Shown here one piece after another: positions 1 to 46,681 of a stretch of DNA of 64,000 nucleotides. Every line of letters starts with the position of its first letter. The first letter of the stretch is position 1. The notes beneath the pieces were generated by a model, which saw only the letters and a program-made list of their open reading frames with translations, searched no databases and was not told the DNA's origin. Location of the stretch: positions 1-64,000 of the forward strand of contig JBNGIO010006064.1 of the NCBI GenBank assembly GCA_049999805.1, read 5' to 3'. A program made the position numbers and the translations under genes. The stretch is from Folioceros fuciformis (Eukaryota).

Positions 1-160
1 CAAGAGAACCTTTGGAGACCTTCCAAGAATTATCTCCAAACCAACAGTGGTAGCTAGCGTCATCCAACTGCCCTACGCTAATCATGCTTTTTGTCAACTT
101 CGGAACATGCCTAACATCCTTCAATGTGAATGAAGATCCGTTGTGGAACTTCAGCCGGCA
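1..160 (-). mobile_element. Ty1/Copia pol fragment (protease to GAG-pre-integrase region), runs off the window edge
   Basis: Manual minus-strand translation gives LKFHNGSSFTLKDVRHVPKLTKSMISVGQLDDASYHCWFGDNSWKVSKGSL, a typical Copia pol segment. Similarity stops at about 155-160. Confidence 0.85.
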
Positions 161-185
161 AACTTTGTGATGTGAAGCAAAGGGA

Positions 186-299
186 GTGTGCCAGTCTACC
201 AGTGCACACCCACTATCTACCTAGATGATAAATTGCGCCGGTCAACCGGCGCACTTATAACGCAAGGAGGGTTGGAAGTGCGCCGATCGACCGGCGCCC
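186..299. repeat. Three copies of the 22-bp palindrome GTGCGCCGGT-NN-ACCGGCGCAC in the putative transposase intron
   Basis: Copies at 186-207, 233-254 and 278-299, read directly. Confidence 0.9.
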
Positions 300-345
300 T
301 TCCAATGCCTACATGAAGCCTGCTTAAAAAAACACGCTTACATAC

Positions 346-1563
346 CTTGTTTCTTCTTATCAGACTCGGCTCTTATGTTCCTTTTCAGGTAGTCGCAGGT
401 TGTACATAGCGAAAACCTATTGGTCTTTGGAATTCGCACTTTGTGGAAATGTGAAGCCCACAATTGACAGAAATAAGAGTAACACACACTGTTCTGTTCC
501 GCTTGCTGCATTTGCCCCTTGTACTACAAAAAAATTTCCTCTTTTGTGTACGAGTCTGGAAGATGGTACACTTCAATGTTTGGCACGCGTTTTGCTAGTA
601 GCAAAAATAATTGATCCATCCAAACACATGCGGCCATAGCGTGGTCTTGGGTGCGCTTCTCTGCATAGAGACAGCCCACCCACACAATGTTATCCAAAGC
701 TCTTTCTTTCGCAGCCTCGTTCCTGTTTTCGCACCGATACAGAAAACTCGTTTAAAGGCGTCCCGACAATAGCGTATCTTTGCAGATCCAATCAAAAAAA
801 GTCTCCGCTGTAGAGTGTCCATCAATAGCACGATTGACATCGAACAAGGTCTGCAAAAACATTTCTTGCTCTATCCTGCACATGTTTAAAAATCGGTACC
901 TCAAATCCCAAAAGCCTAGTTTACCTAAGGATCTAAGACACTGCTTTGCACAACATATCCTTCGATAATCTGCAGAAATACAGATCTCAGAGCACTTTGC
1001 CTCAGGTACAGTCGAGATTTTTTTCTTCCGACTGTGCCGATGATCTCCGAGAGCTTCAATCGGAGATTTGGATGATGGTTTCAGATTTCGCACTGTTGTG
1101 CCAATCGTCCTACCAGTTTCTTCGGACAACACATCTGCTCCTTCACATTCAGCATGGAAGCGCTCCCCGCTTGATCTTCTTAGTACCCAGCTTGCACTCG
1201 CATTTCCTTCCACATCCAGATTAACAAGGTTACCGTGCAAGATTGTGCCCTCCGCATTCTGCTTCATAGGTGTTGTTTTCCGGATCGTTGGCTTGAAAGG
1301 AGATTGTAAGCGCAATGGGCTTGTTGAAGTGTGGATGTCGTCAAGAAGACTAAGCCGTATAGGCGACGCTCGGAAGTCGATGTCGGTACCTTATGAATCA
1401 TCGACTACAAAGCATCATGACGCAAACAAAGAACTCTAACATAGACTTCCAACTAGAATACACGAATGCCCTTCGTGAACCGAATTCCTCGCCTACCTTG
1501 AGAGTTGAACTCCGCTATTGTCATCGCCACCATCTCGCGTGAGGAAGAAGCCTGCCAATCCAT
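346..1563 (-). pseudogene. Sola-like transposase, N-terminal half only (stops and frameshifts; catalytic part absent)
   Basis: Joined frames read RICCAKQCLRSLG...RFLNMCRIEQEMFL...YCRDAFKRVFCIG...CVWMDQLFLLLAKRVPNIEVYHLPDSYTKEEIFL*Y...SYFCQLWASHFHKVRIPKTNRFSLCTTCDYLK and end at an AAG|GTATGT donor at 346/345. The CCxxxC, CxxAF and F..lW..f..vrIP..rFs.CxxC pattern resembles Sola-type transposase N-termini as I recall them. The start position is approximate. Confidence 0.6.
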
Positions 1564-1921
1564 GCCAATGTCTTAAGGATTGCTCGCAAATGACCTTCCT
1601 TACAAGATGCAAGCTAACGTCACTCGGAGTTTGATTGAAGACACGTTTACACTGGCATAATTAAGACACCACTTGAATATGAACGTTTGATCACGATAAC
1701 AAATAGCGGTTATTGGTATGAAACGACGCCTACAATCGTTGTTGTGGCATAAATGCTAGAGACGTAGTTCAAACACCCTTGCTATTTCAGGAAACAAAAA
1801 TTCAACTTCACATTTGACTTCAAATCTCATCATTCAATGCTTAAGACATCCTTCTGTCCTTCTGGATCTGACTAGGTGTTTTGAAGTTCCATCATTCACA
1901 AGCTCTCCAGCACACTCGAAG

Positions 1922-4900
1922 ATGCCAGCTGGTCGGCGGAGCAACAAGCAACTGAATGCGGCCATTGACATGCAAGCATTGGAGGCACCACCAAGGTTGA
2001 AGAAACCACGACAGAGTGCGAAAGCTTCAGCTCGCACTGCCGCTAGCCCATTCGTGGAAAGAGAGCCATCGATGACCAGCGATCACAATAGGGGATGTTA
2101 CGCCACAGCCACCAGCTGTTACACTGAGGAAAGACAATTCCGCTGGGAGCGTCCGTGCCTCGAATAGCAACGCTAGCGAAGTTCATATTAACCATGTTGC
2201 TGTGACTGTGACTCAGGGTGACAGCACGGGTGGTAGCCAGAACCACAACATTCCAAATGCGTACAACTTTGTTGAGCGTTTGAAGCTTAAAAAGCTTGAA
2301 GACACGCTTGCCAAAAGGTTCAACACAGACAAAGAGTGGTTTTTCGTCATAGAAGAGCTTGAAGACTACAATTTGCCCTGGGTGCCGCTGGTGGCTCTGT
2401 GGGTTAACGGTTTCCAAGGCTTGCAGAACGATGAGGCAAGGAGGCCTGGATGGATTCTATGTGCATTTGTTGGCGGCGTGGAAGGGGAAACCTATGTCAA
2501 TTTCATATGCACGCGGCACCCACCAAGCCATATCACCGATGACTACGATAGCCACAGCCTTATTGTAGTCAATGTCGCGAAAGCAGTGCCACGGAGCTGT
2601 GAACCGATGTGGCTAAACACCGCTTTGAAAGATTGCTTGAATGTGGAAGATGTTAGTATTTATTTAGTGTAATGTCGGTTTATGTTTATAAACCCAGCAT
2701 TAAGTAACCCTAAAAATTTGCATTACGTGTTTCCTACAGGGAGGCGAACAGTTCTATCGGACTATCTTGCACACTCATTGCGTTTTGAAGAATCGTGCTC
2801 TAGCTTCGAGAATTGCAGGAGAGCGCCAGAGGGTATCCATCCAAGTAGAGTTTGGCCCCATCTCATCAAGGCCAACGGAGAGGGTTGAGAGACCGGTGGA
2901 GACGCCGCGCATGCAGCTAGAGCTTTCGGAAGACAAACTTCCTGACCCTAAACAACTAAGCGGTGAGGAGGAGAAAGAGATGGGAGATTATTGCTCCACG
3001 GAAGACAACCTGAATGAAGCGCTGGATGCGGCTTGAGGCTCAAGAGAGGAGGAAGACGGTAAAGAAGATTCACCAATAGAGATATCCCCACCCCGGAAGA
3101 AACAAAAGACGGTGCGCCGGGCTACCGGCGCCCCTGTGCAAGGGAAGAGGAAGACTGCAACCACCTCTCCGTCCAAGATGCGGAAGAGAAACACAGGTTG
3201 CTGACATAAACTCAACCGTTGTTCTTTCTGTTCTCGTCTGTGAAGAAACTGGTATCTTGGGAAGCCACTGACGTTGACATATTGCCTAACAACGAGAAAT
3301 GTTTCAGTGGCAGCTTCTTCATCGCAGAAGAGGAAGAACAGGATGGCAGGTCCTGTAAGCGAAGCAGCTGCTCAGCGTAAGCCTCAGCTGAAGGCGCAAG
3401 GTCCTACTTGCGAAGAGGAGCTGCCACGGACAGTGGAGACAAACACAGAAAGAATGGAGAGAGTTGCGCAAGATGAAGACTATTTCGCAAAAAAGCTCAT
3501 GCAAAACGGATTCGATCAACAACGTTTCATTTGCATGTGGACATTCTGCATCCGGCCAGTTACATTACAGCAGATGCACAGATACGGGAGGTAGACGAAG
3601 CGTGGATGAAGTGCCTGGTTAGGCAGATGCAGTCAGGGTCAATGAAGGAAGGCATTTTGCCTCTCCTTTGCATGATAGATCCCAAACAGGCTTCCAAGAA
3701 AGAAGATGTTTCGCTGGACAAGATCACAGCGCAACAGTACCGGATGGGTGTGCTTGGAGGAAACCACTGCTTCACAGCTATGCAGAAGCTGCACTAGATG
3801 TACCCAGTTGAGGACAAATATGAATGGATGGAGGGGCATGTTTATGCAGGAATGACAGATGAGGAAATGTAAGTCCTCGCAGTAGATCATAATGTGTATG
3901 CCGACAAATGAAAGAGAATGGGCTTCATTGAGCAAGTTCGGTATATCCACGACGAGCTGGATATCTTCTATAGGAAACATGGATTGGATGAGAAGCCCCC
4001 TGTGAAGTGGAAATTCAATCTCTACAGGTTACTAGGGATGACAGATAAGGCAGGTGACCCTTGGGACACTGACTGGGTGCAGAAGATGGTAGACAGGTAG
4101 ACATTACGATATCGGGTGGCCAGGTGTAGTGGGATCCTATGGGAGAACGTGGAAAGGATATTCAGGATGTGGGAAAGGAGTGAGCTGCCTGAACAGATAG
4201 CAGGAGGAAGCTTTGGCACAAAGAAGAGCGCAAAAGCAAAGAGGAAACCTGGGGAAGCTAGACTCGCTTCCAGTAGTATGCCAATGCCAGACGAGTCTTC
4301 GAAGAAGGTTGCAGCAATGCAGGTCAGGCCTTGGAGGGCTTTTCAAGGAGTCCCAGCAGGTGTTAAAGGCAAAGAGATGCTTATTGTAGTGACGTAGAAG
4401 GTTATCCAGGGGAAGCTGCACCTCAAGGACATGGACACAGAGGTGGGCCAGAGGAAAAGGATCCATCTCATCCAACATGCTTTCAGAATGGCTTTAAATT
4501 GCGCAACCTTTGAGGAAGCGGAAGTGTTGTATCTCAAGCATATGGAAGACGCACATCTCCTCAAATTCCAAACCGCATTTGCAAAAGTGGTAAGCTTTCT
4601 TTCAGATCTCTTAGTTTTTTTTCAGCATGCTAGTTGAAGTGCGCCGGTCTACCAGCGCACTCCAGCCATTTTTTTGCCTTTGTTATCCATTCTAGCTAGA
4701 GTGCGCCGGTCTACCGGCGCACTCTAGCCATTTCTTTGCCATTGTTACACATTGTGGTTGGAGTGCGCCGGTCTACCGGCGCACTTCAGCCACTTCCACA
4801 CAAAACGATGTAGATTCGGGTTTAGAGCAACGGTCTACCGACGCACTCCAGCCACGAGAAGAGTTTGTCTCTTTAGGGTTTAGGGTCAATGTAGTTCTCG

Positions 4901-6152
4901 ATTTATAATTGTGCTTGTAGTGTGGTTGTTCTGACCAAACTATTTGTTGGCAGAAACTTGCAAACGTAAATGACCTCGAATCATTGCCAAAGCCTTTCCA
5001 AGATTATGTGTATTTAGCAAGAAACTGGAAGCGCATGGAAGAGGAAAAATAGAAACTCGTTGACGTAGATATGGATGCAGGATTATCGAAGATTAGGGTC
5101 CCAAGCAGCAACCAGAAGACTAAGTATCAAGTAATCCAACGAAACGTTTTGGAGATGAACGCATTTCTAGTAAAACGACCATATACCCTGTTATTCACTG
5201 ATTTGCCTTGCGGACTGCAATGCCATGAATTTGACAGGCAGCTTACTAGCGAAGAACTTGAAGACATGATCAAAGGGTTTTCAGACTGCACGAGCAATAA
5301 TGTTTATAGGATGGTCCTCATGCATGGGGTGGACCTCATTACATAGGCTAGGGAAGCACTTCGGCCATGGTGCAAGAAGGCACCATACATACATTAGTAT
5401 GGGAGAAGACCAACATTCCTCCCAATGCAGGGGCAGTTGAGATTGTGGAGTATTTAACTGTTGAAAGTGTAATTCACTCAGAAGCTCAGACCAAAAAAGC
5501 TACTTTATTCGCGAATCAGGGATTTCTTTTGCCGAGAGTTATTAGGCATGGAGCCGTGGTTAAAAAACATCTGTTCCACTTGGCAGATTCTATGGTCGTC
5601 TCGCCGTATCAAAAACCTCTTGTTTTAATGGGTATGCAGGTCAATATGTTTTCAGATGAAGGAGACTGGGTAGTGGATGCGAGCGCAGGATCTAGGTCAT
5701 TCCTTCAGGCTGCGATTCAAAGAGGAAGGCATGTTGTTGCGATGGACATTGATATACGATGCACGACTTATATGATGCAGAGAGTGAATGGCATTGGCTC
5801 TTTGCCAGACGCTGATGAGGAGATCAGCACAGACCACTTCTCGCGTGGGCCCACAAAGTTTTGGGCCAAAGAAGTCTGCGTGGATCGTCGTATGCAGGTA
5901 TTTAGTTTGCTTGGGAAAAAGGGAGAGATATTTTGTCAATCGCACGACAGACCAACGGAAGATCTATACGCGGTGACGATTTGGGATGAGAATGGCACAC
6001 TTCCGCTTCAGATTGTGGACGACCCACATTTCTTTGTCTTGGACGTGGAGGGAGACAACTTCGGAGACACAGAGGGCCAACGCCTCAAAGATGTAGATAT
6101 AGTTGTCAATTCCAAGGCCAACCAAGACGTTCATGATTTGGTGTGGAGGTGA
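1922..6152 (+). pseudogene. Spliced ParB/Srx-like domain plus N4-cytosine/N6-adenine DNA methyltransferase (beta-class) fusion gene, about 1200 codons, inactivated
   Basis: Reconstructed exons are 1922-2651, 2740-3196, 3308-4589 and 4954-6152; all three GT-AG introns restore the frame. ParB part: QIREVDEAWMKCLVRQMQSG...GVLGGNHCFTAM...VYAGMTDEEM*VLAVDHN. MTase part: LLFTDLPCG...TLVWEK...SPYQKPLVL...MFSDEGDWVVDASAGSRSFLQAAIQRGRHVVAMDID. There are 8 in-frame stops and 3 frameshifts (about 2070, 3525 and 5378). Confidence 0.8.
4639..4846. repeat. Four palindrome copies at an exact 62-bp period inside intron 3 of the ParB-MTase gene
   Basis: Copies start at 4639, 4701, 4763 and 4825. Those at 4701-4722 and 4763-4784 are perfect GTGCGCCGGTCTACCGGCGCAC. 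Confidence 0.92.
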
Positions 6153-6522
6153 TTTGGAGAGTAGCTGAAGTCCGTAGTACATTATGCCTATATTTACATT
6201 TGGATGTTAAACCCTTTAAATTCATGGCATGTACATAGCCAACTTCCTGTCACCCAAACATACTGTAGAGTGCGCCGGTAGACCGGTGCACCCAAAGTAC
6301 GATTCGTTTTTTCTGGAAATTTTCATAGTTCAAATAACTTATGTACTAGTTGGTTGTGGGCTGAAAGCAAATTTGTGGAGATGGATGGCGTCCATGACAC
6401 GTCAAAACAAGTGGTTTTTTTTAAAAACGGCTTAAATGTGAATATGTGACAAGGATGGTGTAAATTCAAATGTGCACCAAACGGGCTTCATAGAATACGA
6501 CCGTTAGGCGCAGAACTTGTTC

Positions 6523-8342
6523 TAAGTCCACATACCACACAATCTCACCATTGTTGGATCCATTAGCAGACACAGAGTTAAGCATATGCTGCATGACAAA
6601 CAAGTTGTTCGAGTCATTCTGACTGTTGCTTGAGGCATAATTGTTTTGTTGCCTCCTGTTGCCTTGATTTCTCCGTGGATAGTCTCGTTCGAAGTGGTCT
6701 AACCTACCACAAGTCCAGCAACCACTATTGTCTGCATTTGCATCATTTTGTTGTTGATTTCCACGTCCTCTTTGACTCCCCTAGCCTCGAGAATTTCTCC
6801 TCTTCCACGTGTACTCTTAAACTGAGACTCCTAATTCTGTTGCTGATTTTGGTAGAAATTTCTACCTCTACCACCTCTTTGCCCTCTGCCACCTTGGGCT
6901 CTACCTCTGCCTCTGCTAGAGTAGAAGGCCTGCTCAGAGTTTTCCTTAGGCTTAGAGGATGATTCCTCGCCTAGGTTTTTCTCCTCTATAATCAACATAG
7001 AAATCAAGTATGAGAAATTGGGAATGTTTTCCCGAGTCTGTATGGAAGTCTTGAGCTGCTTATAGGCAGGTGTTAACCCGCGCAAGCAAACTTTGACCTT
7101 GTCGTCATCTTCCACACTGACACCAATGGACGCAAGGGATTCCACTATCCCTTTGATATTTAATGCGTACTCATTCATTGATAAGTTCTTCTTCATAATT
7201 GTGTTGAATTCATTCTTCAACTGTAGTTTCCTCGCCTTCATGTTAGTCTCATAGAGTTTGACCAACTCATCCCATGCTTCTTTGGGCAACTTTGCATCCT
7301 ATATGTGCCCAATCATGGTGTCATGAATGCTGATTGACAGCCAATACATGACCTTCCGAGATCCTTGACTCCAATCCTTCAGCGCCTTAATTTGTTCCGT
7401 TGTTGCACTCCATTCAAGTACTACAGGGGATTTTTCATGCTCCCCCTCAATGTAGTTTCAATAACCCTTTCCCATAAGAAAGTTTGTAAAACGAAACTTC
7501 CAGGCATGGAAGTTGTTTTTGTCTAGCTTCTCCTGCACGATCTGGTTAATACTGACACTGGCCGTTCCTGCCACCACTCAAGGTTGACACTCAATCCTTC
7601 TTGAGTACTCACACCTGATAAATATCTGCAAGAACCAGAGTGCTTTTGACTGGAGTTTTACTCACAAGACCTTAAGTCTCCGCTTCTTGAGAGCAATTTG
7701 GTGCAGAATCACGCTGCCTTGCGTGAACCAAATTGTCTCATGCTCCGTGTCCTTACAGACTCTTGACGGTCTGCTCATGAAGCTCCCGTGAGATTTCCTG
7801 TCAATTCCTTCCTTGCTACCAAGCTAGGGTTAGCACACTTTCTTGCAACTGTTGAGACTACTGCAGCTGTTGCCTCTACTTGTGAGCCCTTCCACAGAGC
7901 TCCGGGGACCAACAGCCCGTCTAGCAAGCCGACAGGGCCTTGTCGCCCTTCTCCTCACTTCCTGCACACACCGATATGAGAGTTAGCTGCCGGGAAGCTT
8001 GTTGCCGATCTCCTTCCAAGCTGCTCCAACTCCTCGTAGCTGCTCCAGCTCCTGGTGTGCACTCTTACTGCCTCTTGCAACACCTCCTACGCCGATCTTA
8101 CATCGCCTTTAGGTGTAGCCGCTTGGCTCTCCGGCTCTGGGCTACGCTTGGCAACCAGGCTCTCAAGCTCTGATAGCACGTCAATAGGATCAACTCCAGT
8201 CTATGTGCAAGTGTAGGAGAAGAGAGGAGAAGATGAGAGGGTGGTATTGGTGGTCACAACCAAAAACAATACACATCACCACTGTCTTACTATGGAGGTC
8301 CGAGGTCTCCATTTAAGTAGTGCATGTCCGAGCCTATTGACA
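6523..8342 (-). mobile_element. Ty1/Copia element 5' part: LTR (8179-8342), tRNA-Met PBS, leader, gag and start of protease
   Basis: LTR ends (c)GTCAATAGG...CCTATTGACA form a near-perfect 10-bp inverted repeat. The PBS reads TGCTATCAGAGC (8167-8178, minus), one change from TGGTATCAGAGC. Gag reads KLDKNNFHAWKFR...PKEAWDELVKLYETNMKARKLQLKNEF. The protease motif IVWYVD breaks off at about 6523. Confidence 0.9.
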
Positions 8343-9395
8343 CCATCTGTATTTAGTTTAGTTTTAAAGACCCACTTGCAGCTAATAGGCTTCCTTCCAT
8401 CTACCAGGTCTACCAACTCCCAAGTGTGGTTCTTAACAAGAGAGTTGTACTTGTCAGCAATAGAAACTCTTCACCTCTCACCATCAGGACCTGACAGAGC
8501 TGCAGCATAAGATTGAGGATCACATCACACTTCAAGTACTCTCAAGTGTATTACATGAGCATGAGGACACCTAAAAGCAATAGATTGATACGGGGGTTTT
8601 GACCATTGTTCTCTGGGTCGTGTATCACAAGTGGGATAGTGAATCGTGAGGCGCTGGATGTAGAATAGGAGCTATTGGTTGAGCAAGAAGGTCAGCTAGA
8701 TCTTCACCAGAAGCAGAACCCTCATCATCAGTCAAGTTATCATCCTACTCATCATCTAAAGAAACAACCGCATCCGGAACATTGTCATCAATGGTCATAT
8801 CAACATGTCTAGGCTCTGGAGGTGAAGGCAAATTAACATCTTGAACTGAATCTAGCACATCCTCAAGCTCAAACAACTCTACTATTGATTCACCATTTGA
8901 TCCAAGATATTCACTAGGAGGTGCACGTAGAGGCTCAGTCTCTTAAGAACTAACATTAGTGTCCTCTCCAACATGAGTAGTAACAACATCTGTATCTACC
9001 CCCACTGAACCAAGCTGGTATGAAACAAGACTTGTCCTTGGAGAAGTAGGCTCCTCAAAAACCACACCATGAGCCAGCACCACTCGTTGGGTTAGAGAAT
9101 CAAGCAACCTATAAGCTTTCAAAGTCTTAGAATAACCTAGGAAGAGAAAAGGTTTTGCTCTATCATCAAGCTTACAGCGTCATTGCTTAGGAACATAGGC
9201 ATAGGCCAAGGAGCCAAATGCTCTTACATGTAGAAGACTTGGTTTCTTCTTCCAGAAAACTTCATGGTGTTTTTCTTGGAACTTCTACCATAAGAACTTT
9301 GTTCAAGATGTAAGCAGTTGTGGAGATGGCTTTGGCCCAAAATCTCCTAGGTAACCTAGCCCAGCTAAGCGTGCTCTGAGTCATACCCATAACAA
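8343..9395 (-). mobile_element. Ty1/Copia pol fragment (integrase C-terminus to RT start), interrupted on both sides by other Copia insertions
   Basis: Minus strand reads ARLPRRFWAKAISTTAYILNKV near 9300-9385 and KNHTWELVDLVDGRKPISCKWVFKTKLNTDG near 8343-8435. Confidence 0.85.
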
Positions 9396-9399
9396 CGTC

Positions 9400-10343
9400 T
9401 GAAATAAATTGAGTCTGTCCTCAAACTGAAGGATCGCTTGAGGAGCCACATGGTGAAGGAGGAGAGGAGGAAGCAAGGAGGAGAGGAGAAAGAGAAGTCA
9501 CACTCTCACAATGTCTTAATATTGCAAGGGAGCTCAAGGGTGTATTTATACCCTCTAGAAGAGCTCCCAAGGAAGCTTCACAAGAAGCGCACAGGAAGCT
9601 GCGCAAGAAGCTTCCTACAGATTAGCTACTAATCTAAACAAATGATACTTAACTAGACACTAATATTAGACTAAACACATTAGTCTAACCCCATTGGGCT
9701 TTAATAACCCTACAACCTCCCACTTAAAGGCCAATTTATCTTCGTAGGAGAGTGGTCTACCTCATGCCCATGAGTGTGCAAGCTTGTGCGAATTGCTTTG
9801 AAGAGAGACCCTTGGTAAGAATATCTGCAAGGTTCTGACTGGTGTGAACTTTGATAAGCTGTACCCTCTTGTCTTCCAACACCTCTTGAATGAAGTGATA
9901 CTTCACTTTCACATGTTTGGTCTTTGCATGAAACACTAGATTCTTCGCCAATTGGATAACACTTTGGCTATCACAATGCAACACTAGCAGCTCAACCTTG
10001 ATCCCCAAATCTCCCACTAAACGAGCAAGCCACATGACTTCCTTGCAAGTCGTAGTCGCTGCAACATACTCGGCCTCTGTGGTAGATAGCATTATGCACG
10101 ATTGCAAACAAGATCGCCACGAGATTGCCCCTCCAGTGCACATGAAGACATAACCTGATGTGGACCTCCTTTTGTCTATATCCCTTGCATAATCAACACT
10201 TGTATATCCCACTATAGATGCATCTTCACAACCAAAACATAAGCACAAAGCTTTTGTACCATTCAAGTACCTCATAACTCCTTTCACTACCGCCTAATGC
10301 TTCGTGCCAGGGTTTGACATAAACCTGATAACCACTCCCACTA
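9400..10343 (-). mobile_element. Ty1/Copia 3' part: RT end/RNase H, PPT and 3' LTR (about 9400-9714)
   Basis: ORF 9757-10287 has RRSTSGYVF...LSTTEAEYVA...LHCDSQS...TKHVKVKYHFI...NLADILTKGL. A purine tract AAGTGGGAGG is followed by TGTAGGG at 9714 on the minus strand. Confidence 0.88.
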
Positions 10344-42966: not shown

Positions 42967-45900
42967 TTATCTCGCTTTTCCTGCAACCAGGAAACTAAGC
43001 ACGAGTCCGTCCAAGTCTGTCCACCAGGTCTGCCCTGGCTGCTTCCATGCCTTACATTCTACTCTCCTTGCCTGGATCTCCTCTGCTTGCTTCCACATCT
43101 GAACACTGGTGTATATGTTCGACATAATCACGTATGCCGTGGCATCCATCTCATCCAGGTGGAGTGCTTCGTTGAAGGCATGGATTCCCACCTCCACGTT
43201 GCTCCACTTTTGACAAGCACCCAACAGAGTGTGCCAAATGGAAGCATTCGCGGGTGCAGGCATTGCCCTTACCAAACTTAGTGCCTCATCCAGTCGGCCT
43301 GTCCGCCCCAAGAGATCAACCATGCATGTGTAGTGGTCCACAGTTGGGGGGATGCCGTCCTCCTCCATGCCCTTGAAGTACTCTCTCGCCTTGTTCACAA
43401 GACCCACGTGACTGCATACTGTGAGTACACTGAGGAGTGTGATGCCGCTTGGCTGTATCCCATCCTTTTTCATTCTCTGGACCAAGAGAAAGACCAGTTC
43501 ACTGTCTCCTTGGGACGCGTAGCCTGCAATTAGTGCACTCCAGGACGCAACGTCTCTTTTCGGCAAGGCATCAAACACCTGCTGTGCATCCACCATGCTT
43601 CCAGACTTTCCGTACATGTTTATCAAACTACAGGCCACAAACCCATCAGAAAGAAGCCCTTGGGCCTCAATCTGTGCATGCAGCTCCTTTCCCAGTTGCA
43701 AAGCAGCCAGATCTGCACATGCTTGCAGGAGGCACGCGAATGTCACAGCATTGGGTACAGCAATGCCGCCTAGTTGCATAGCACTGTAAAGATGAAGGGC
43801 TTCCTGGCCCATGCCCTGTTGGGAATAACCTGCAATTAGAGCAGTCCAAGTTACCACATCTTGTTGCACGAGTCCTTCAAACACAAGGCGCGCATCCTCT
43901 AGGCTGCCACATTTTGCGTACATGTTGACCAAGCTGTTGGATACAAACTCATCATCGTGAAGTCCCCGTTCTCTAATTTGAGCATGAAGCTTCTTCCCCA
44001 TCTCCAAAGCTGAGCTGCCCACACTCGCACATGCCTGCAAGAGGCACAGAAATGTCACGGAATTGGGTACAACGATACCTTCTTCTTGCATGCTATTGTA
44101 GAGACAAAGGGCCTCATGTCCCATGCCCTGCCGGGAATACGCACCAAGCATGGCGTTCCACGTTACGACATCTTTTTGAACGAGTCCGTCAAACAACCTT
44201 TCAGCGTCCTCCAAGCTGCCGCACTTGCCATACATGTTGACCAAACTGCTGATCACAAAGCCCTCGCCTTCGTGTCCTTGTTCACTAATTTGCGCATGAA
44301 GCTCCTTCCCTCTTGCCAAAGCTGGGGTGCCAACGCTTGCACATGCCTGCAGCAAACACACCAACGTCACAGAATCAGGTACCGCCATGCCATCTCCTTG
44401 CATAGCACTGTAAAGATGAAGGGCTTCCTGGCCCATGCCCAACTGGGAATATCCTGCAATTAGAGCTGTCCACGTTGCCACATCTTTCTCACAAAGGCCA
44501 TCAAAAACTCTCTGAGCAGCCTCTAGGCTACCACACTTTGAATACATGTTCACCAAACTGTTGACTACAAACAAATCTGCGTCATGTCCTCCTTCACTAA
44601 TTTGAGCGTGAAGCTGCTTCCCTTTCTCCAAAGCTGGGGCGCCAATACTAGCACAAGCCTGTAGGAGATGCACGAATGTAACACAATCTGGTACAGCTGT
44701 GCCTTCTTCTTGCATAGCACTGTAGAGATGTATAGCTTCGTGGCTCATGCCCTGCTGGGAATATCCTGCTATCATGGTATTCCACAACACAGTGTCTTTT
44801 TGAACAAGTCCAGCAAACACGATCTGGGCATCTTCCCAGCTGCCACATTTGACATACATGTTCACCAGACTACTGGATAAGAGCACATCACAAGCAAGCC
44901 CACGCTCTCTAATTTGAGCATGAAGCTGCTTCCCCTTCTCTACCGCTGATGAGCCGACGATTGCACATGCCTGGATCAGGCACACGAAAGTCATGCAATC
45001 AGGTACAGCCATTCCATCTTCTTGCATAGCACTGTATACAGCAAGAGCCTCCTGGCCCATGCCCTGCTGGCAATATCCTAGAATTAAAGCAGTCCATGTC
45101 ACCACATCTTTTTGACCAAGACCATCAAACACTCTCTGAGCATCCTCAAGACTGCCACACTTTGCATACATATTTACCAAGCTGCTAGCTACAAAGGCAT
45201 TGCTTCCCTGTCCTCGTTCTCTAATTTTTAGGTGAAGCTGCTTACCATTTTCCAAAGCTGGAGGGCCCCCACTAGCACATGCCTGTAGCAGGCACACAAA
45301 CGTCACAGAATTTGGTACAGAAGTGCCTTGTTCTTGCATAGCCCGGTAGACCAATAAACTCTCCTGCCACATGCCCTGCTGGGTGTACCCTGCTATTATG
45401 GCATTCCACGTCACGACGTCCTTTTCACCGAGTGCATCAAAGACCCTGCGAGCAGCATCCACACTGCCACACTTTGCATACATGTTCACCAAAGTGTTGG
45501 CAACAAACGCGTCAGCTTCATATCCTCGTCTTCTAATTTCGATGTGAAGCTGTCTCCCCTTCTCCAATGCTGGCATACCCATACTTGCACATGCCTGCAG
45601 AAGTAACAAAAATGTCACAGAATCGGGTGTAGCCAAGCTCTCCTTCAGCATGAAACTGTACAGACCGAGGGCTTCGTGGCCCATGCCCTTCTGGGAGTAT
45701 CCTGCTATCATGGCATTCCACGTCACAACATCTTTCCGATCAAGTCCATCAAACACGTTTTGAGCATCTTCCAAGCTCCCACACTTTGCATACATGTGCA
45801 CCAAGGCATTAGAGACAAACACATCCCTATCAACCCCACCAGCCAGCACGTCAGCATGTACCTGGTGCCCCGTCTCTAAGTCGGATCCCCTTGCACAGGC

Positions 45901-46398
45901 CTGAAGGGCAGCCACAAAAACATGGCCATCTGGCTGCACGGTTGACCTCCGCATCTGCTGATACAGAACTAGGGCCTGCTTCACTTGTCCATGATTAACA
46001 TGTGCAGAAATTACGGAGGACCACATGAAGGCGTCTGGGTTCCCAACCTCGATGAAAACATTCATGGCGTCTTGCAACCTGCCATGGGAAGAATACATGC
46101 GCAGAATGTGGTTGCACAGGAACACATCCGTGTCGTACCCAATTCTCACCATAAAAGCATGAATTTTGCGACCCAGAACAAGATCCCTCGTCACCATGCA
46201 CTTCTTCAGTACAATATACAAGAGATCTCTGGACATACAACAGTCTGTCTTCACCAGCACTCCCAAAGCCTCAACAGCCTCCGCTAGAAGGCCCTGACGA
46301 CACAACCTGCTCACGGTATCACCATTATCCGACAAGCCCCACTTCATGGAACGGCCCGCGAAGAAGCCCGCCAGTCCCACCATGGGCATCGTGATCAT
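42967..46398 (-). CDS. PLS-class pentatricopeptide repeat protein with E domain and no DYW, single exon
   Basis: 1143-aa ORF with repeated NMYAKCGSLEDA / DVVTWNAMI units, an E domain (HYTCMVDLLGRTG...WHTLLGAC...AYVIMSNIY) and an end at KQPGQTWWTD. Confidence 0.96.
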   Translation of the reverse strand: MITMPMVGLAGFFAGRSMKWGLSDNGDTVSRLCRQGLLAEAVEALGVLVKTDCCMSRDLLYIVLKKCMVTRDLVLGRKIHAFMVRIGYDTDVFLCNHILRMYSSHGRLQDAMNVFIEVGNPDAFMWSSVISAHVNHGQVKQALVLYQQMRRSTVQPDGHVFVAALQACARGSDLETGHQVHADVLAGGVDRDVFVSNALVHMYAKCGSLEDAQNVFDGLDRKDVVTWNAMIAGYSQKGMGHEALGLYSFMLKESLATPDSVTFLLLLQACASMGMPALEKGRQLHIEIRRRGYEADAFVANTLVNMYAKCGSVDAARRVFDALGEKDVVTWNAIIAGYTQQGMWQESLLVYRAMQEQGTSVPNSVTFVCLLQACASGGPPALENGKQLHLKIRERGQGSNAFVASSLVNMYAKCGSLEDAQRVFDGLGQKDVVTWTALILGYCQQGMGQEALAVYSAMQEDGMAVPDCMTFVCLIQACAIVGSSAVEKGKQLHAQIRERGLACDVLLSSSLVNMYVKCGSWEDAQIVFAGLVQKDTVLWNTMIAGYSQQGMSHEAIHLYSAMQEEGTAVPDCVTFVHLLQACASIGAPALEKGKQLHAQISEGGHDADLFVVNSLVNMYSKCGSLEAAQRVFDGLCEKDVATWTALIAGYSQLGMGQEALHLYSAMQGDGMAVPDSVTLVCLLQACASVGTPALARGKELHAQISEQGHEGEGFVISSLVNMYGKCGSLEDAERLFDGLVQKDVVTWNAMLGAYSRQGMGHEALCLYNSMQEEGIVVPNSVTFLCLLQACASVGSSALEMGKKLHAQIRERGLHDDEFVSNSLVNMYAKCGSLEDARLVFEGLVQQDVVTWTALIAGYSQQGMGQEALHLYSAMQLGGIAVPNAVTFACLLQACADLAALQLGKELHAQIEAQGLLSDGFVACSLINMYGKSGSMVDAQQVFDALPKRDVASWSALIAGYASQGDSELVFLLVQRMKKDGIQPSGITLLSVLTVCSHVGLVNKAREYFKGMEEDGIPPTVDHYTCMVDLLGRTGRLDEALSLVRAMPAPANASIWHTLLGACQKWSNVEVGIHAFNEALHLDEMDATAYVIMSNIYTSVQMWKQAEEIQARRVECKAWKQPGQTWWTDLDGLVLSFLVAGKAR

Positions 46399-46681
46399 CC
46401 ACCGACACGGCGTGAAGCTGCCCTCCCCGGATCCGGAAGTTGCCGATCTGCGTGCCCAGGACTATACACATTCTATCGCTTTTAGAATCGAAATACGATG
46501 GGAATATACACCTGTGATCCACAGAATTCCACTCCGATTTGCGAACGAGCCGTTGGAAAGATTTGTAAAGTCGTTGTTCCTCCTCTCGACAAGGTGAGGA
46601 TGGGAGATTGACGGCTAAAGCAGACGGAGCCCCAGCGTTGTTGTCAGTGTGGCATTCTTGATTTCTAATGTCTCTTTCTTT

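Follow-up and report, generated by a model that had tools for sequence, protein, structure and literature searches.

Nine copies of a 22-bp palindrome are scattered between positions 186 and 6291 of a 64,000-nucleotide stretch of DNA (the window) from the plant Folioceros fuciformis (contig JBNGIO010006064.1, positions 1 to 64,000), which raises the question of what, if anything, recognizes them. An earlier note on this DNA had proposed parS-like or transposase-binding sites or, alternatively, the substrate of a methyltransferase. The copies lie in the remains of a Sola-like transposon, and the palindrome is a real cis motif specific to this element. The reading that we favour, by a modest degree, is that of candidate operator sites for a ParB-fold protein encoded by the element, forming a self-recognition code of the kind known for VANC or VirB.

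The palindrome and the transposon that carries it

The word, GTGCGCCGGT-NN-ACCGGCGCAC (word 1, against which mismatches are counted), has two 10-nucleotide arms separated by a 2-nucleotide centre. All nine copies described in the earlier note were found at their positions with 0–4 mismatches, two of them exact (Table 1). Seven copies have no more than three mismatches, compared with none in 100 shuffles, and no further site with five or fewer mismatches is present elsewhere in the 64 kb, in agreement with the claim that the rest of the window is free of the motif.

The full element is 8,948 bp long (C2463), as defined from sister copies at 73–91% identity. It is bounded by 29-bp terminal inverted repeats (TIRs), of which 15 left and 17 right ends were found, and the 4-bp target-site duplication is exact in four of the five loci with both ends (CTTG, AAGT, ATAG and ATAA), with three of four bases matching in the fifth. 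The minus strand encodes a DUF7869 transposase (PF25273, 3.6e-49 in sister locus L043), a domain that we take to be that of the Sola1 transposases. A second, divergent gene of four exons ends in an N6_N4_Mtase domain (PF01555, 3.2e-6). The reported target preference of Sola1 is AWWT (PMC3845634); because the four exact duplications all deviate from it (one has the form AWDT), the element is called Sola-like and not Sola1. The window copy spans about 156 to 6521. Its left 2.5 kb are gone, it has lost the catalytic DUF7869 exon that sister copies keep, and it is a pseudogene with stops and frameshifts. Stops or frameshifts occur in every element copy read, and the copies seen are without exception dead and in decay.

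Word 1 is present at 64 exact sites in the 87-Mb assembly, two in the window and 62 elsewhere. Fifty-seven of the 62 lie within, or no more than 355 bp from, a BLASTN match to the reference element, and four of the remaining five were tied to the ends of related elements through their motif-masked flanks. The last, a short array at the start of contig C2347, is only probably linked to the transposon. A genome-wide repeat unrelated to the element, the outcome that the earlier note had named as fatal to its proposal, is ruled out, since 63 of the 64 exact sites belong to the transposon clade and its derivatives. An origin of the word in a phage or bacterial parS site was also rejected, with no hits in viral contigs and 21 single hits across 596 Gb of prokaryote genomes.

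The sites also occupy fixed places. The reference element has 12 sites and five places: one site lies 340 bp from the left end, six are in the transposase intron, one is in exon 2 and four are in the methyltransferase intron, while the site near the right end has decayed in this copy and is present in sister copies. The same five places are kept in subfamily B (50–75% protein identity) amid other flanks and periods, which settles in the affirmative whether position is conserved across copies. Common spacings of 33, 41–42, 62 and 73 bp come close to integral numbers of helical turns, unlike those of 45–47 and 80 bp, and the mean cosine of the spacing phase is 0.3–0.4 at 10.4–10.6 bp, as calculated from non-independent data.

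Array size varies, with up to 8–14 copies at a 41–45-bp period in subfamily B (L066:4246-4883, L073:1404-2037 and L052:6276-6592). Tandem 88-bp arrays of word 1 are also found in a derivative family, which has a TIR variant of its own and has inserted next to clade-2 elements (L095:930-1460, L103:470-975, L116:1200-1910, L081:1720-2030 and L083:1-520); no coding part was found in the stretches read. In three of ten junctions examined (near L045:4090-4306, L082:3580-3830 and L091:3414-3435), an internal deletion has fused the arrays of the transposase intron and the methyltransferase intron, and five further junctions have one end beside a methyltransferase-intron site. The arrays look like hot spots of breakage or recombination, in a set of loci partly chosen for having sites.

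Constraint on the word and its forms in three clades

Among the 327 sites with four or fewer mismatches, nearly every departure from the consensus is a C>T or G>A change at a CG or CCG, the pattern produced by decay of host 5-methylcytosine. Transversions amount to 1.3–2.7% in the motif compared with 10.6% in the flanks. Transitions at CG are at background level in these copies, all of them dead (13.1% in the motif versus 13.0% in exons), and those at CCG amount to 6.3% versus 9.4%. The 2-nucleotide centre does vary, as the earlier note had claimed; however, it is not free, being CT or AG in 237 of the 327 sites and inherited site by site.

The copy at 3112 lies in exon 2, where it reads VRRATGAP as had been noted. 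The exon is predicted, and the prediction agrees with its splice sites (donor GT at 2652 in 10/10 copies, acceptor AG in 9/10 and donor GT at 3197 in 10/10) and with its third codon positions, which are the most variable (0.72 versus 0.86/0.89). All seven third positions of the exonic palindrome are four-fold degenerate, with a top-base frequency of 0.92, versus 0.63 at 29 four-fold sites of the same exon (p 0.0025) and 0.70 in a set of 188, a comparison of 9–10 related copies that is hence indicative. The peptide varies between subfamilies, and in the subfamily of the window copy the site departs systematically from the consensus. The constraint acts on the DNA word, not on the peptide.

A tree of 52 methyltransferase exons resolves three clades of 31, 13 and 8 rows (support 100/99–100), and between −1300 and +1500 bp of the exon start each has a word of its own. 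Word 1 is present in 31/31 clade-1 loci (two of which also have a site nearer to word 2), word 2, GGGCGCCGGC-NN-GCCGGCGCCC, in 7/13 clade-2 loci and word 3, TGGCGCGCAC-NN-GTGCGCGCCA, in 6/8 clade-3 loci; a fourth form, changed at pair 9:14, was seen in two clade-3 loci. The clade words gave no hits in 56 kb of background. All of them share the 10-2-10 layout and GCGC at positions 3–6, and every change between clades is symmetric on both arms. Clade-2 and clade-3 sites concentrate at −510 to −680 and +740 to +920, which correspond to the intron and 3′ places, and site positions hold across clades at 30–45% protein identity. Genome-wide, words 2 and 3 are rare, with two exact sites and seven with no more than one mismatch. 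The three clades and their words recur in a FastTree tree of 33 transposase rows: word 1 in 20/21 rows, word 2 in four of seven distinct rows and the word-3 type in two of four.

The ParB-fold protein and competing explanations

A profile search produced 170 relatives. The structure model built from 112 aligned rows has a predicted local distance difference test score (pLDDT) of 90, compared with 45 from 14 rows, and its top Foldseek matches are ParB (E 5.5e-4) and Noc (E 5.9e-4). In fold comparison, residues 1–129 match PadC (Z 9.6, root-mean-square deviation 2.6, 93 aligned) and KorB (Z 9.1, 2.4, 92 aligned). The accessory protein, which the earlier note had called a ParB, thus has a ParB/Srx fold by this model. 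Sequence searches of Pfam and the PDB gave no ParB match and weak matches to DndB and DUF6551, each in three of 112 members. Unannotated homologues of the region were found in Chara braunii (P0002 and P0013), Adiantum nelumboides (P0005 and P0012) and Riccia sorocarpa (P0018), several of the homologues from these genera being fused to N6_N4_Mtase, which suggests that the module is old in streptophytes. No loci of this system were found in metagenome contigs, and a word-index homologue search using a methyltransferase exon found none.

In the mechanism that we propose, a dimer of the ParB-fold protein would recognize the word in double-stranded DNA through its helical domain and would coat the element from inside. 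Such coating could keep both divergent genes usable or label the element as self, in the manner of VANC on VANDAL and VirB at virS, with the clade-specific words confining the effect to the protein's own family and the arrays enlarging through tandem duplication. The parS-like character seen in the earlier note holds as a likeness and goes no further: the GxRR signature is absent, and no ParA-like gene was seen among the two genes recognized in the 8.9 kb, which were inspected without a dedicated ParA search. More tentative, and given less than an even chance, is the wider proposal that a bacterial ParB–parS module was made over, in eukaryotic DNA transposons, into a private system of self-recognition and anti-silencing that loads on the internal palindromes and spreads along the element, its protein and sites having diversified jointly into at least three orthogonal codes in one plant genome, with a non-catalytic methyltransferase half.

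Several observations weigh against assigning the sites to the ParB-fold protein. The helical domain (residues 130–220) has weak structural matches (best Z 4.9, with several winged-helix rows at Z 3.4–4.1), none of them a clear match to a helix-turn-helix. In place of GxRR there is G (103/109), N, H (105/109) and then mostly S or T, in a register taken from the sequence pattern, and VirB is described as needing the GxRR arginines to bind cytidine triphosphate (CTP; PMC10770331). The CpGs of the motif are not protected from decay, their rate in the dead copies being that of the background, and the flanks of the sites show extra complementarity that would fit a hairpin. The own word is missing from 6/13 clade-2 and 2/8 clade-3 loci, while word 1 occurs in two clade-2 loci (traced to an inserted derivative) and word 3 in one. 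The counts are inflated, as an exact site was the reason for including many of the clade-1 loci and the copies are related, and words 2 and 3 were scored on the loci from which they were derived. Finally, co-variation does not single out the ParB-fold protein, because the transposase tree shows the same clades and words, and no ParB-free control was found, the six short stretches read from transposase-only loci all belonging to clades 2 and 3.

The strongest competitor, although we consider it unlikely, is that the transposase itself binds the palindromes, which would serve as internal and subterminal sites for transpososome assembly or for activation of the element's own transcription. The words follow the transposase clades, the outer sites lie some 340 and 230 bp inside the two ends, the derivative with its own TIR keeps the 88-bp arrays and TGCGCC is contained in the subfamily-A TIR; transposases have also been reported to activate their cognate copies (10.64898/2026.08.24.746577). 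However, most sites are at least 2.3 kb from the left end and at least 1.6 kb from the right end, with one in a coding exon, and the TIR and the palindrome are different words, the GCGCC stretch having been lost from the subfamily-B and derivative TIRs while the internal word is unchanged. Comparable arrays adjoin ParB genes under another transposase superfamily (Plavaka; 10.1101/2025.02.11.637652). The ParB-fold protein is preferred because of these three points, namely the internal position of most sites, the different TIR word and the Plavaka arrays. A site for a dimeric protein, as the earlier note had suggested, is therefore the best reading in view of the confinement and fixed places of the motif, while the ParB-fold protein and the transposase are not separable here.

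Improbable, in our view, is a role of the palindromes as hairpins or cruciforms, formed in RNA or single-stranded DNA, in which structure and not the double-stranded word would be under selection. The folding of intron 3, much stronger than that of shuffles (z −8.7), and the two-sided changes between clades would suit such a role, as would the pairing of flank positions 1–4 (0.62/0.46/0.42/0.38 versus 0.53/0.35/0.29/0.26 when shuffled, in 76 distinct contexts, equalled by 13–57 of 2000 shuffles), but this pairing is modest and fading by position 6, and a structure needs no identical word at about twelve places that include both genes, sequence outside them and a coding exon. No Rfam family came near its threshold, and a known RNA family was rejected on the two matches obtained (33.7 versus 76 and 25 versus 39 bits).

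The chance is slighter still that the N6/N4 methyltransferase encoded by the element uses the motif as its substrate, marking the element against host silencing. The domain matches PF01555, its S-adenosylmethionine (SAM)-binding motif I is intact and the core GTNNAC of word 1 resembles bacterial N6-methyladenine sites (AccI, HincII and Hpy8I), which we count in favour of this role. Motif IV precedes motif I, an order that we take to be that of the beta class. The catalytic motif of N6/N4 methyltransferases is of the (D/N/S)PP(Y/F) type, with an aromatic residue, and DxPY is present in 10/12 homologues, including those of Chara and a fern; in this genome, however, Tyr or Phe was found at motif IV in none of the 32 copies read from all three clades, and Arg (DxPR) in 22. 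Motif IV appears to be conserved here as a possibly dead or repurposed active site, and the methyltransferase half probably forms a module that is non-catalytic or atypical. The suggestion of a methylation substrate is weakened by this and by the decay of the motif CpGs at the background rate given above, and GTNNAC is not found in register at the centre of words 2 and 3.

Least probable of all is a neutral repeat spread and homogenized by slippage, gene conversion or template switching, which would explain the variable number and period of the arrays (33–88 bp) and the deletions that join motif to motif, but not the lone and exonic sites that hold the word while their flanks differ, the positions that persist between the divergent clades, or the non-decay changes of clade 1, which are one-sided (74, with no two-sided change in the bin), three more two-sided changes at pair 2:21 having been binned with word 2.

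Known systems and other features of the window

One of the closest designs is that of Sola1-1_Ec32 of the brown alga Ectocarpus (PMC12477816), in which a gene for a ParB-like protein with an N4/N6-methyltransferase lies opposite the strand of a Sola transposase, and for which self-binding and self-modification are proposed. That element is 21.5 kb long, whereas the Folioceros element is an 8.9-kb plant element with a defined 22-bp word, fixed places and clade variants; the main text of that paper contains neither `palindrom' nor `binding site'. In Bostrychia, Plavaka (EnSpm) elements with PAG3 have a ParB-domain accessory gene and tandem inverted-repeat arrays, proposed as PAG3 binding sites (10.1101/2025.02.11.637652). 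They differ in their transposase superfamily, in the fusion of ParB to a 2-oxoglutarate (2OG) oxygenase, in having a separate methylase gene and in arrays that adjoin the gene, and the section on PAG3 gives no motif sequence, exonic site or co-variation.

Like the palindrome, the VANC motifs of the Arabidopsis VANDAL elements occupy non-coding sequence (introns, intergenic and terminal regions), expand by tandem repetition and change from one family to the next (PMC5735166). VANDAL is a Mutator element, its 8–9-base motifs are described in the available text without mention of palindromes, the protein is unrelated and its function is proven, VANC causing sequence-specific hypomethylation in trans. 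Family-specific motifs in non-coding tandem repeats are common to both, with a ParB fold and DUF7869 here in place of the VANC protein and the Mutator transposase. ParB–parS, VirB–virS, KorB–OB and Noc–NBS resemble the present pair in combining a ParB/Srx fold with a helical domain behind it and in having palindromic sites, and VirB is an antisilencer that acts from more than 1 kb (PMC10770331, PMC11790492). They differ in the length of parS (16 bp, versus 22 bp for the word) and in the CTP-binding arginines of GxRR, which are absent here.

The system is not described in the available text of PMC4738411, 10.1101/2021.02.12.428880, PMC12695648 or 10.64898/2026.05.21.726589, and the literature searched, which lay outside subscription papers such as Iyer et al. 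(2011), holds no account of the motif or of such sites in a plant Sola element. The design is partly known, having been described in algae in 2025; the base-level site, the constraint inside an exon and the three clade-specific codes are what the present analysis adds. Both 2025 papers suggest that a ParB-bearing protein of a transposon binds and modifies the element that encodes it, and the parts available name no site. With a candidate site known at base level, and with three or four natural variants that go with protein clades, the binding idea becomes testable. If correct, it would represent a second self-recognition system after VANC, assembled independently out of bacterial components, and would supply orthogonal 22-bp DNA-binding pairs.

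Table 1. Features of the transposon copy and its left border in the window (mismatches are to word 1)
Position	Strand	Feature	Basis
1–155		Unrelated repeat, truncating the element within its transposase-intron array	93.5% to L100, 87.7% to L090
186–207		Palindrome copy, 4 mismatches (all C>T/G>A), transposase intron 1	Motif scan
233–254		Palindrome copy, centre CA, 1 mismatch, transposase intron 1	Motif scan
278–299		Palindrome copy, centre CG, 2 mismatches, transposase intron 1	Motif scan
346–1390	−	Disrupted 5′ coding exon with the Cys-rich region of the Sola-like transposase	
1922–6152	+	Four-exon ParB-fold/N6-N4-methyltransferase pseudogene	Conserved splice sites, codon-position variation
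~1922–2651, 2740–3196, ~3349–4589, 4954–6152	+	Predicted exons (second acceptor uncertain)	
3112–3133		Palindrome copy inside exon 2, 2 mismatches, synonymous positions frozen; VRRATGAP, VRRSTSAP-like in subfamily B	
3525–3911	+	ParB/Srx-fold domain (model residues 1–129 of sister locus L043), GxRR replaced by GNH(C/S/T)	Structure model
3912–4184	+	Helical domain following the ParB fold, at the place of the DNA-binding domain of ParB	Structure model
4639–4846		Four-copy palindrome array (4639, 4701, 4763 and 4825, with 1, 0, 0 and 4 mismatches), 62-bp period, intron 3	
5200–5211	+	Motif IV (DLPC in the window, DLPR in most copies)	PF01555, 3.2e-6
5676–5699	+	SAM-binding motif I	
6270–6291		Lone palindrome copy, 1 mismatch, beyond the 3′ end of the methyltransferase gene and 230 bp inward from the right end of the element	
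6493–6521		Right TIR, 29 bp, ending GTT	
6522–6525		Expected 4-bp target duplication	

To the right of the element, pieces of Copia-type retrotransposons occupy 6522–10293 of the window, with gag at 6834–7298 (−) and an RNase H-like frame at 9757–10293. An uninterrupted pentatricopeptide repeat (PPR) reading frame of 1164 residues with an E motif is present at 42967–46461 (−). It fits a plant host, as do the homologues in Chara, Riccia and Adiantum. To the left of the C3108 copy of the element (L022:1-5533), there are long tandemly repetitive frames of 1298 and 484 residues, which are matched by L036:5839-7001.

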